DNA of 64,000 nt. It comes from Candidatus Aenigmatarchaeota archaeon. GTDB taxonomy: Archaea > Aenigmatarchaeota > Aenigmatarchaeia > QMZP01 > QMZT01. The position numbers and the translations under genes are program-made. This document shows, piece by piece, positions 20,383-21,564 of this stretch. Each line of letters starts with the position of its first letter. Positions within the stretch are counted from its first letter, which is position 1. The stretch covers positions 13,271 through 77,270 of the forward strand of contig JAZDFI010000008.1 of the NCBI GenBank assembly GCA_043808015.1, in the 5' to 3' direction. Below the pieces are notes generated by a model, which was not told the origin of the DNA, searched no databases, and saw only the letters and a list, made by a program, of their open reading frames with translations.

Positions 20383-20547
20383 TAGCCCCGGGCGGATTCG
20401 AACCGCCGTCAACCGGTTTCTCCCGATTCGGGTTTTTGCTGAAGCTTTTTATTAAAAAGCTTCGTCCAGAGCCGGTTATCCTTAACCCCCCTCTCAAATC
20501 GCTTTAAGAAAAATTTTCAAAGGGATTGGCCACTAGACTACGGGGCT
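20383..20547 (-). tRNA. tRNA-Gln(CUG) with two introns; 73-nt mature tRNA. One intron is about 44 nt in the D-loop (about 20482-20525); one is a 48-nt canonical 37/38 intron (20418-20465)
   Basis: Acceptor AGCCCCG/CGGGGCU with A73; anticodon stem ACCGG/CCGGU; loop CUCUGG|A; T-arm GGCGG-UUCGAAU-CCGCC; exons sum to 73 nt, closely matching archaeal tRNA-Gln. Confidence 0.8.
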
Positions 20548-21422
20548 ATATTCAACATTCTTCTTACGTGCTTTATATTATTAAATCTTATGTTTGTTTT
20601 ATATTTTTCTATCTCCTCCTTTTTAGAGAGGAAAAATTGATCTAAAATTATTTTAGATGGAGAAAAACCAAGTGATATTAAACCACTTCTCGCGTCAAAA
20701 AGCAAATTTTTAGATTTATTTTTAAAGGATATTCTCAATAATTTTCTATCTCGTCTTGACATTCTAAATATTGATCCATCTGTATCTATCAAACCTCTTA
20801 TACATGATTTTAAAAAATTGGTATCAGTTTTTATCCATTCAGGTATTCCAACATTATTCACTTTTTTATTACCGTTTTTTAACCCAAAACTTTCCAATAT
20901 TTTTATAATTTCTTTGCTGTATACAGTTATGAATATTTCATTTTTTCTCATCTCGATTTTTGAATTTATTTTAAAAATGTCATCTACCAGAGGTTTTACA
21001 AAATTCAATAAATAATCTCTTTCTGTTTTCAAATCTCCAGCTATTTTTAACGCATATACGCCCTTTTCTCCGTTCCAGTAGAGATTACCATCGCCTAAAA
21101 TTATCCCTATGATTTCAGCCAATTCGATTGATTTTTCAGGAATCATAATTTTTTTGGTTTTACCGGGGGAATTTTTACCTCCCAGTACTTTGCCCCAATT
21201 GTCTTCCAGTTTTTTATCGATATGTTTGTAGAATTCAACTTCGGCAACCTGACACAATTTTTTAAAAACTTCTGAATTTAACGATACTTTTTCATTGAGT
21301 AAATCTATTCTCAAATAATCTTTACTAACTCCCACCATTTTACTCAATTGCAGCCATGTTTTATTTCTTTTCGCTTTCAATATAAGTTCCCTCTGCTTAC
21401 CATTTTTTAATATTACCCGCAT
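20538..21422 (-). CDS. HTH + double-motif LAGLIDADG homing-endonuclease-like protein, paralog of the 8405-9545 gene
   Basis: Motifs IGIILGDGNL and IRGLIDTDGSI about 100 aa apart; N-terminal HTH-like segment; the gene is visibly AT-rich; its last three codons overlap tRNA-Gln positions 1-9. Confidence 0.65.
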   Translation of the reverse strand: MRVILKNGKQRELILKAKRNKTWLQLSKMVGVSKDYLRIDLLNEKVSLNSEVFKKLCQVAEVEFYKHIDKKLEDNWGKVLGGKNSPGKTKKIMIPEKSIELAEIIGIILGDGNLYWNGEKGVYALKIAGDLKTERDYLLNFVKPLVDDIFKINSKIEMRKNEIFITVYSKEIIKILESFGLKNGNKKVNNVGIPEWIKTDTNFLKSCIRGLIDTDGSIFRMSRRDRKLLRISFKNKSKNLLFDARSGLISLGFSPSKIILDQFFLSKKEEIEKYKTNIRFNNIKHVRRMLNIAP

Positions 21423-21526
21423 TAAATTATTTAGTTTTTCTCACTTATAAATTTCCTTGTACACTGGACTACATATTAAAAAGTAAAATAATGTCAAATT
21501 ATTGTAACTTTTTAGTGATAAAACTA

Positions 21527-21536
21527 TTTATAAATA
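21527..21536 (+). promoter_or_regulatory. TATA-box-like element (TTTATAAATA) upstream of the first PQQ-repeat gene
   Basis: AT-rich 140-nt intergenic region; box lies about 30 nt upstream of ATG 21565. Confidence 0.4.
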
Positions 21537-21564
21537 AAAAAATCAAGTATTTACAATAAAACGG

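Follow-up and report, generated by a model that had tools for sequence, protein, structure and literature searches.

Two AT-rich LAGLIDADG genes of an aenigmarchaeal genome as probable end-replacing homing-endonuclease cassettes in tRNA-Gln and thrS

Introduction

What kind of gene ends inside a tRNA gene, and how might it have come to lie there? This question is raised by a 64,000-nucleotide stretch of the genome of a Candidatus Aenigmatarchaeota archaeon (GenBank assembly GCA_043808015.1, contig JAZDFI010000008.1, positions 13,271 to 77,270; this whole stretch is hereafter called the window), in which two AT-rich islands each carry a gene for a LAGLIDADG endonuclease-like protein. Gene 1 (20538..21422, minus strand), recognized as an open reading frame (ORF) with Pfam support, encodes 294 amino acids and overlaps the start of a tRNA-Gln(CUG) gene. 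Gene 2 (8405..9545, plus strand) belongs to a second family, is frameshifted, and meets the 3' end of thrS. An original prediction, made by reading the window alone, described the two as free-standing paralogs that could be horizontally acquired or selfish elements, or else domesticated regulators or maturase-like factors.

We consider it likely that both islands are 'end-replacing' homing-endonuclease cassettes, one in tRNA-Gln and the other in thrS, each supplying a substitute for the gene end that it displaced. Neither gene is simply free-standing. Both are cassettes lodged in conserved host genes, one in the D-arm of tRNA-Gln and the other about 45 codons from the stop of thrS. Below, we present the evidence for this reading, the observations that weigh against it, and the alternatives that it has to face.

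Gene 1 and its relatives end within tRNA genes

The tRNA-Gln(CUG) gene adjoining gene 1 (20383..20547, minus strand) was delineated with a cloverleaf-rule parser and by hand reading, and by use of ARAGORN on the sequence spliced in silico. Its exon 1 (20547-20526) is followed by a 44-nucleotide insertion after the D-loop (20525-20482), exon 2 (20481-20466), a 48-nucleotide intron at position 37/38 (20465-20418) and exon 3 (20417-20383), all on the minus strand and with intron borders taken from the cloverleaf. Without its introns, the gene begins AGCCCCGTAGTCTAGTGGCCAAGGATAACCGGCTCTGGACCGG. Gene 1 ends ...AAT ATA GCC CCG TAG, and its last 10 nucleotides, AGCCCCGTAG (the last base of ATA, then GCC, CCG and the stop codon TAG), are positions 1-10 of the tRNA, with the final codons GCC CCG TAG at positions 2-10. 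This overlap with a two-intron tRNA-Gln is close to that originally claimed, which had been placed at positions 1-9.

ARAGORN reports no tRNA in the unspliced window, and Rfam at its gathering score returns the rRNAs and one tRNA only. Because both methods miss tRNA-Gln(CUG), we wrote our own cloverleaf parser and validated it by comparison with ARAGORN, both for intronless tRNAs and for the spliced gene. Once both insertions are removed in silico, ARAGORN calls tRNA-Gln(ctg), and the fold of the pre-tRNA has a z-score of -4.6. At a permissive E-value, Rfam finds the T-arm alone at this gene, as a tmRNA fragment, and this match was set aside. Also set aside was a candidate tRNA promoter in the 3' end of gene 1, where A/T-rich boxes between -25 and -37 and near -60 give no clean signal in a gene that is AT-rich throughout.

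Homologues of the gene 1 protein number in the hundreds across DPANN archaea, with about 300 amino acids and 42-67% identity, and a full hidden Markov model search yields 678 clusters at 50% identity (E<=1e-30). A relative is encoded in 461 of 599 candidate stretches from species-representative genomes. From such genomes 80 loci were taken, 79 of which have a complete ORF end. By the parser, a tRNA starts at the ORF end in 65 of these 79 DPANN loci, mostly with an overlap of 10 or 15 nucleotides, and it is always tRNA-Gln (CTG/TTG) or tRNA-Glu (CTC/TTC). ARAGORN independently calls the adjacent tRNA in 28 intronless loci. The family C-termini ..SPVV, ..APVV or ..AP are translated tRNA 5' ends (for example, AGC CCG GTG GTG TAG). 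The tRNA overlap is a defining feature of the whole family and no local accident.

The targets are reflected in the relationships among the proteins. A neighbour-joining tree of 68 sequences contains Gln, Glu(CTC) and Glu(TTC) clades plus a Gln(TTG) subclade, and it splits by isoacceptor, not by genome, with two copies from one genome falling into different clades. One family copy is present per locus within ±4 kb. Empty and occupied sites coexist in syntenic Nanoarchaeota loci, where an occupied tRNA-Glu stands beside an empty tRNA-Gln and the reverse arrangement also occurs; for the lineage of the window itself, the loci yielded no empty site.

A relic of the tRNA 5' end lies upstream of gene 1

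Positions 1-22 of the tRNA recur as a second copy, (A)GCCCnnTAGTnTAGTGGTCAA, which across the loci ends 32-40 nucleotides upstream of the ATG of the LAGLIDADG gene. The copy in the window (TAATATGTAGTCCAGTGTACAA, 21457..21478, minus strand; 11/20 matches ungapped, gapped score 23) has a decayed acceptor part and a retained D-arm part, and it ends 34 nucleotides before the gene 1 ATG, the same position as in about 25 other loci. Agreement with the working copy reaches 19-20 of 20 positions in L001, L021, L065 and L072 and 14-18 of 20 in some 15 further loci; elsewhere, as in the window, the relic is reduced to its D-arm part. Matches of at least 14/20 were obtained for 18 of 65 upstream segments versus 4 of 4729 control segments, and they cluster at -53 to -62 from the ATG. 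The D-arm columns are invariant in an eight-locus alignment. This conserved part of the decayed relic looks to be under selection and may act as operator, promoter-proximal element or homology arm.

Three observations bear on where the upstream copy came from. In L021, the relic starts 3 nucleotides after tRNA-Gln, which is where tRNA-Glu starts in the empty Gln-Glu tandems of L015 and L024 (spacer of 5-12 nucleotides). In L045, L044 and L039, the relic is preceded by the tRNA promoter motif AAC(T/C)CTTTTAAA, as is the intact tRNA-Glu of L014. Finally, the L045 relic together with its upstream TTTTAAA promoter matches the intact L014 tRNA-Glu 5' end at 25 of 25 positions, whereas the working copy in L045 differs (GCTCTTATCGTCTAGATGG). 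These findings show that the upstream copy is the displaced original. The native relic in L045 is thus closer to the relative's gene than is the inserted end, and the corresponding relic of cassette 2 (see below) lies inside a recently exchanged tract. Acceptor-stem pairing with the resident 3' strand was also tried as a sign of foreign origin, but was dropped after mixed results: the relic pairs better in L008 and L003, and the working copy does so in L042 and L018.

In most loci an A/T box (aTAGTAAAaTATATAAA) directly follows the ..GGTCAA of the relic, with the ATG some 22-26 nucleotides further on. In the window this box is TTTATAA (21445..21451, minus strand), a putative promoter element about 26 nucleotides upstream of the ATG. 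If it functions as a promoter, this geometry implies a leaderless or short-leader gene 1 mRNA. The spacing is different in L001 (1172-1274), where a perfect copy of tRNA positions 1-22 lies about 8 nucleotides before the ATG. Because there is no TATA box between the two, transcription of this gene would depend on the former tRNA promoter that precedes the relic.

Cassette 1 (about 0.93 kb, 21456..20526) thus sits in tRNA-Gln(CUG) at the end of the D-loop, near position 21/22. On the minus strand, the order is the relic of positions 1-22, the putative TATA box, the ORF, and a fresh copy of positions 1-22 that joins the resident positions 22-76. Exon 1 of the present tRNA gene is the 5' end that the cassette supplied as a replacement. 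With these fresh positions the tRNA gene is complete, and no 0.9-kb segment has to be spliced out. The ORF runs into the fresh tRNA copy, with U8-A9-G10 of the tRNA serving as its stop codon.

Two ORFs more distantly related to gene 1 are similarly placed at other tRNAs. In L045, a LAGLIDADG ORF (2027-3040, minus strand) ends inside tRNA-Thr(GGT) (2047-1976), its C-terminus ..ASVVQR* corresponding to GCC TCA GTA GTT CAG CGG TAG, and upstream of it lie a relic of its own (GCCTCTGTAGCTCAG) and then a TATA box. In L048, another (170-1444, minus strand) reads through tRNA-His (254-182). Because of these tRNA-Thr and tRNA-His cases, the cassette layout is broader than Gln and Glu. A viral origin of the cassette was considered and dropped, as IMG/VR viral contigs hold no close relatives and only distant LAGLIDADG cores with at most 33% identity.

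A second cassette replaces the end of thrS

The two ORFs of gene 2 (8405-8839 and 8799-9545) become one protein of 379 amino acids once one T is taken from a run of nine (T9; 8813..8821, plus strand). From its probable start at 8450, the intact gene would encode about 376 amino acids, the size of the proteins in this separate DPANN family. The joined protein matches LAGLIDADG_3 (E=2.3e-17), keeps the acidic residues of its motifs LIKGDGYI and RGAFDAEGA (GDG and AEG), and has a C-terminal winged-helix-like tail. That a single extra T breaks the gene had been predicted, and metagenome contig L085 agrees with this: its 99%-identical copy has T8 at the same location and an intact frame. The T9 run of the window reflects a homopolymer error or, if real, an inactivation that is very recent. 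The proteins of genes 1 and 2 are 26% identical over 189 amino acids (pairwise E=7e-6), and so the earlier description of them as paralogs holds in the loose sense of distant kinship, but the two represent separate conserved families.

Gene 2 is arranged tail to tail with thrS in 7/7 loci, with an overlap of 4-33 nucleotides, and its upstream neighbours vary. On the far side of gene 2, on the strand of thrS, a relic of the thrS C-terminus starts at the conserved (V/I)IGDKEE motif. In the window, this relic comprises about 41 codons from the I-I-V-I-G-D motif and lies between adk and gene 2 (8276..8398, minus strand; tblastn with the thrS C-terminus, 47% identity over 45 amino acids, E=2.5e-4). 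A relic was detected in five of the seven loci, namely the window, L085, L081 (E=7e-9), L099 (E=1.7e-8) and L098 (E=2.9e-4), with none detectable in L083 and L100. The working end of thrS (last ~47 codons, 9513..9660, minus strand) is assigned as the replacement on the basis of its composition, the duplicate in the relic and a tract of high identity to L085. It is AT-rich like the cassette, with GC 0.34 and GC at third codon positions (GC3) 0.40, versus 0.50 and 0.68 for thrS as a whole.

The gene order in L085 is the same as in the window (adk, gene 2, thrS), and sliding identity between the two reveals an abrupt tract. Identity is 71-87% in adk, rises to 97-100% over a tract of 1.6 kb (8200 to about 9800), and drops to 83-85% further into thrS; by segment, the values are 0.77 for adk, 0.98 for the intergenic region, 0.99 for gene 2 and 0.91 for thrS. 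This tract is a recently exchanged segment that includes cassette 2 and the co-converted end of thrS. 

Cassette 2 thus repeats the design of cassette 1 on the strand opposite thrS, about 45 codons before its stop, at the V-I-G-D-K-E-E codons. It brought the replacement thrS 3' end and left the old end as a relic beside adk.

The proteins are LAGLIDADG endonuclease-like by motif and, for gene 1, by predicted fold

The gene 1 protein contains the motifs IILGDGNL and LIDTDGSI. The first LAGLIDADG motif (LAEIIGIILGDGN; 21084..21122, minus strand) holds Asp111 within the invariant G110 D111 G112, which aligns to the GDG of I-DmoI motif 1, and the second (CIRGLIDTDGSI; 20769..20804, minus strand) holds Asp215 within the invariant columns G210-G216. 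Both of these catalytic aspartates, at the motif ends, are invariant in 40/40 family sequences. Pfam LAGLIDADG_3 (PF14528) matches the protein in two stretches (E=3.4e-9), and likewise matches 40/40 family members. An alignment-based AlphaFold model has a predicted local distance difference test score (pLDDT) of 91, with the pseudo-symmetric alpha-beta-beta-alpha-beta-beta-alpha fold of the superfamily. Foldseek matches its core to I-Tsp061I (template modelling score, TM, 0.72) and I-DmoI (TM ~0.70), both with a probability of 1.00, and also to intein endonucleases, the bI3 maturase and I-AniI. A profile search of solved structures also pairs I-DmoI with gene 1 (6e-5). By its motifs, predicted fold and catalytic acids, the protein belongs to the monomeric double-LAGLIDADG endonuclease superfamily.

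The layout of the protein comprises an XRE-like helical domain (residues ~1-75), a linker (WG..GGKNS) that is conserved yet flexible, and the double-LAGLIDADG core (~95-290). The first 75 residues form four helices with pLDDT >92 in the alignment-based model, and the Foldseek top matches for this domain are all of the XRE/Cro type. Individual family members match various helix-turn-helix (HTH) families at E~1e-3. These data suggest that the N-terminal domain is an HTH, as originally predicted along with the double-LAGLIDADG core. Many family members of about 210 amino acids have no such domain (profile positions ~85-303), and in others of about 335 amino acids the N-terminal extension is of another kind. 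The added DNA-binding part seems to be modular.

The family is under strong purifying selection. For eight pairs, the ratio of nonsynonymous to synonymous substitution rates (dN/dS) is 0.08-0.24. About 10% of copies are truncated or interrupted.

The proposed cycle would proceed as follows. The enzymes would cut cassette-free alleles near the insertion point, in the tRNA D-arm or at the thrS VIGDKEE codons, and double-strand-break repair would then copy the cassette. The conserved D-arm of the relic may serve as an operator, through which the gene could regulate itself, or as a left homology arm.

Age and transfer of the cassettes

The AT-richness noted in the original prediction is evident in both islands: GC is 0.27-0.31 at 20501-21500 and 0.34-0.37 at 8501-9500, versus ~0.50 elsewhere in the window. 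The deficit is located at synonymous sites, with GC3 values of 0.26 for gene 1 against 0.56-0.71 for the neighbouring DUF498, GDT1 and PQQ propeller genes, and of 0.33-0.34 for gene 2, where adk has 0.71 and thrS 0.68. A third, milder stretch (41001-42500, GC 0.36-0.41) carries no LAGLIDADG gene. It encodes an ArsR-type HTH protein (41039-41383, HTH_5 E=1.4e-7), a hydrophobic ORF of 95 amino acids (41393-41680) and an ATP-cone protein (41921-42277), and with GC3 of 0.45-0.57 it is less deviant than both cassettes.

Horizontal acquisition had been proposed from this composition. For gene 2, the L085 tract supports that proposal. For gene 1, the AT-richness is no evidence of recent transfer, because the copy in a second Aenigmarchaeote contig, L097, is equally AT-rich (GC 0.28 versus 0.48-0.55) and diverged like its flanks. 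The order PQQ, cassette, tRNA-Gln, DUF498, GDT1 and XPG is the same in both contigs, and amino acid identities are 64% for the homing endonuclease, 69% for DUF498, 70% for GDT1, 79% for XPG and 58% for the PQQ protein. The L097 relic is homologous to that of the window and keeps the same D-arm segment. Because cassette divergence is about that of the flanks, descent of cassette 1 appears mostly vertical, and in this lineage it is presumably an old resident. Its low GC3 may reflect weak expression at compositional equilibrium and not a scar of transfer. As a further observation on this neighbourhood, tandem PQQ-like beta-propeller paralogs (~460 amino acids each, 49-58% identical between copies and genomes) flank cassette 1, at 21565-24200 (plus strand) in the window and at 1-3803 (minus strand) in L097.

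The evidence for transfer of cassette 1 is indirect and comes from two locus pairs, L045/L014 (described above) and L056/L057. The latter are bins of different taxonomic label whose cassettes (L056 1451-2450 and L057 2069-3068) are 99.6% identical, versus 82.6% for the upstream flank. Their upstream junction differs completely from -20, and the context is rearranged. This pair represents either a recent transfer or a chimeric assembly.

A D-loop intron accompanies the cassette

The unusual 44-nucleotide insertion of tRNA-Gln(CUG) is a recurrent feature of tRNAs next to cassettes. With one rule set applied to all loci, D-loop insertions are present in 25/57 cassette-adjacent tRNAs versus 4/57 other tRNAs (Fisher p=8e-6), and they are absent from empty tRNA-Gln (0/8) and empty tRNA-Glu(CTC) (0/12). 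Among 27 loci with a D-loop intron in the adjacent tRNA, one of 12 other tRNAs has one. The position of the D-loop intron is linked to the cassette. Such an intron might split the rebuilt target and shield the host copy from its own enzyme. D-loop variants (AGCGG and AGTTGG versus AGTGG) were examined as another form of immunity in adjacent tRNAs that have no intron, but the trend was weak and phylogenetically uncontrolled.

All three tRNAs seen in the window have introns. Those of tRNA-Cys and tRNA-Lys are at the canonical position only: tRNA-Cys(GCA) (40785-40903, minus strand) has a 48-nucleotide intron at 37/38 and was recovered by the rule-based scan but missed by ARAGORN and by Rfam at gathering score, and tRNA-Lys(CUU) (54658-54766, plus strand) has a 36-nucleotide intron and is the sole tRNA reported by Rfam. 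The tRNA-Glu(CUC) of Nanoarchaeota-type genomes nearly always has a long (45-155 nucleotides) intron at 37/38, whether or not a cassette is present (L003, L007-L009, L014, L015, L017, L019, L023, L026, L029, L036, L038, L040, L044, L045, L047, L050 and L077). The LSU rRNA match of the window (48693-51828, plus strand) spans 3136 nucleotides versus 2987 model positions, leaving an insertion of ~150 nucleotides that is possibly an ORF-less intron; the SSU rRNA (46401-47839) has no excess length.

Weighing the alternatives

An ultimately selfish, inserted origin, as entertained in the original prediction, is supported. Several observations nevertheless weigh against end-replacing homing cassettes. 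Cassette 1 has diverged like its flanks in most alignable locus pairs as well as in L097, and mostly vertical descent is not expected of a purely selfish gene in a classic homing cycle. The low GC3 of cassette 1 persists across the deep split between the window and L097. L056/L057 is the only pair of the gene 1 family that hints at recent transfer, a hint that is weakened by the rearranged context. D-loop introns are absent from about half of the cassette-adjacent tRNAs, and immunity through such introns therefore cannot be general. Finally, the HTH assignment has a weak basis, with a Pfam HTH_3 match at E=0.086 and a best Foldseek match at E=0.11 on a model of the domain alone with pLDDT 63.

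Some of these same observations would fit a domesticated DNA-binding protein, in which a LAGLIDADG scaffold with an HTH was co-opted, as in WhiA, to act on the tRNA-Gln/Glu or thrS locus without mobility. Such a protein might bind the relic D-arm at its own promoter, or aid tRNA transcription. The strong purifying selection, the mostly vertical descent, the very wide and stable distribution, the XRE-like N-terminal domain, and the conservation of the relic D-arm while the acceptor part decays all speak for this explanation. WhiA itself likewise joins a LAGLIDADG scaffold to an HTH, is widely conserved under purifying selection, and gives weak profile matches to gene 1 (16 bits for TIGR00647, the WhiA family, against a cut-off of 44.1). 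However, the HTH is C-terminal in WhiA and the HTH-like domain N-terminal in gene 1, and the catalytic acids are lost in WhiA, whereas both are invariant in the 40 gene 1 family sequences. Also counting against domestication are the coexistence of empty and occupied sites in syntenic genomes, the identity of a relic to a relative's intact allele, the recent movement of cassette 2, and the ~10% of copies that are truncated or broken. We therefore judge domestication to be the best-surviving rival but an unlikely one.

The idea that the protein is a maturase-like RNA factor, which would aid processing of the D-loop intron in the neighbouring pre-tRNA, is considerably more doubtful. Some mitochondrial LAGLIDADG proteins assist the splicing of group I introns, the bI3 maturase and I-AniI are among the structural matches of gene 1, and D-loop introns are enriched next to cassettes. 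Yet the genes are intact and conserved at the roughly half of adjacent tRNAs that have no intron at all, and the partner of the gene 2 family is an intronless protein gene. Moreover, archaeal tRNA introns are removed by the EndA splicing endonuclease without maturases. Neither of the functional roles originally suggested, regulator or maturase, is thus favoured when both catalytic acidic residues are invariant, although purifying selection and vertical descent lend them some weight.

We give very little credence to a giant bulge-helix-bulge (BHB) intron, whereby the upstream fragment would be the true first exon and all of the 0.9 kb (the ORF and the second 5' copy) a D-loop intron, comparable to the rRNA introns that encode I-DmoI. 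The insertion point does coincide with a known non-canonical intron position, and the upstream copy is 19-20/20 intact in L001, L065, L072 and L021. However, the acceptor half of the upstream copy in the window (TAATATG) forms one Watson-Crick and two G-U pairs among seven positions with the 3' strand, and because this pairing is so poor the copy could not build a tRNA. In contrast, the downstream copy yields complete tRNAs for ARAGORN at 28 loci, and in the window after removal of the two introns.

Least probable of all is an integrase-type integrative element with the two tRNA 5' copies as attL and attR, since the direct repeats of a tRNA segment that flank the insert, as in tRNA-targeting elements, enclose 0.93 kb that encodes a LAGLIDADG protein only, with no integrase in the cassette and no close relatives found in viral contigs, and since the same architecture occurs in thrS with a repeat that is diverged rather than identical.

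With these alternatives weighed, end-replacing homing cassettes remain the explanation that we prefer. We take the insertion history as shown, and present nuclease activity, the cut site, control through the relic and protection by the intron as inferences from it. The interpretation given in the original prediction is partly supported, and it is improved rather than overturned.

Comparison with known systems

The closest parallel is provided by mobile ORFs (mORFs) of fungal mitochondria, which insert in atp6, atp9, cox2 and nad3, where they supply a foreign C-terminus and the native one persists as a relic (PMC3630166). The resulting 'hybrid' genes are known from Allomyces macrogynus and Glomus sp., and their native relics resemble the genes of relatives more than do the inserted copies (PMC3630166). 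The cassettes described here share with mORFs an endonuclease ORF near the end of a conserved gene, a foreign replacement end and a duplicated native relic (PMC3630166). A relic closer to the relative's gene is seen in L045 versus L014, and cassette 2 shows the same signs of transfer. They differ in residing in archaeal (DPANN) chromosomes instead of organelles, and in belonging to families that are ancient, very widespread and mostly vertically inherited. Additionally, cassette 1 replaces the 5' end of an RNA gene rather than a protein C-terminus, and gene 2 is opposite in strand to thrS, which precludes an in-frame fusion. Full-text literature searches found no description of end-replacing endonuclease cassettes for archaea or for tRNA genes.

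Free-standing phage homing endonucleases such as T4 SegB in the tRNA cluster, and MobE with I-TevIII in collaborative homing, likewise have genes beside a functional copy of the target, and their flanks are co-converted (PMC2790892, PMC13096335). By analogy with collaborative homing, the D-loop intron in the target could protect the host copy. However, these enzymes are of the GIY-YIG and HNH families, and their genes are intergenic with no duplicated gene end.

I-DmoI and I-Tsp061I, the best matches in sequence and structure, are also monomeric double-motif enzymes with two catalytic acids and conserved RNA-gene targets. They differ from gene 1 in having no N-terminal HTH-like domain of ~75 amino acids, and in being encoded in BHB introns of rRNA genes, which RNA splicing removes. 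The ORFs of cassettes 1 and 2 need no splicing, since each cassette duplicates the gene end.

Implications

If our reading is correct, then besides the intron and the intein there is a third way for a homing endonuclease gene to occupy an essential gene, which is to carry a spare gene end. End-replacing cassettes extend to archaeal chromosomes, to hundreds of DPANN species and to RNA genes. They connect an endonuclease target to a non-canonical tRNA intron position, which bears on the old question of why archaeal tRNA genes are interrupted. For annotation, they account for the overlooked or wrongly annotated tRNA-Gln and tRNA-Glu of cassette-bearing genomes, and explain why genes labelled 'LAGLIDADG family homing endonuclease' end in ..SPVV or ..AP. 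The proteins are also candidate meganucleases with predictable targets of ~20 bp, in the tRNA D-arm and at the thrS VIGDKEE codons.

More tentatively, such cassettes may be the long-sought mobile agents that shape the disrupted tRNA genes of DPANN archaea. In this scenario, which we offer as a possibility and hold with less assurance than the cassette architecture itself, tRNA-Gln, tRNA-Glu, tRNA-Thr and tRNA-His would be cut at the end of the D-loop, the D-loop intron would be selected or co-mobilised to split the target, and the relic D-arm would be an operator for self-repression. If true, this would lend direct genomic support to a protective origin of tRNA introns and of split tRNA genes, as a defence against tRNA-targeting elements.

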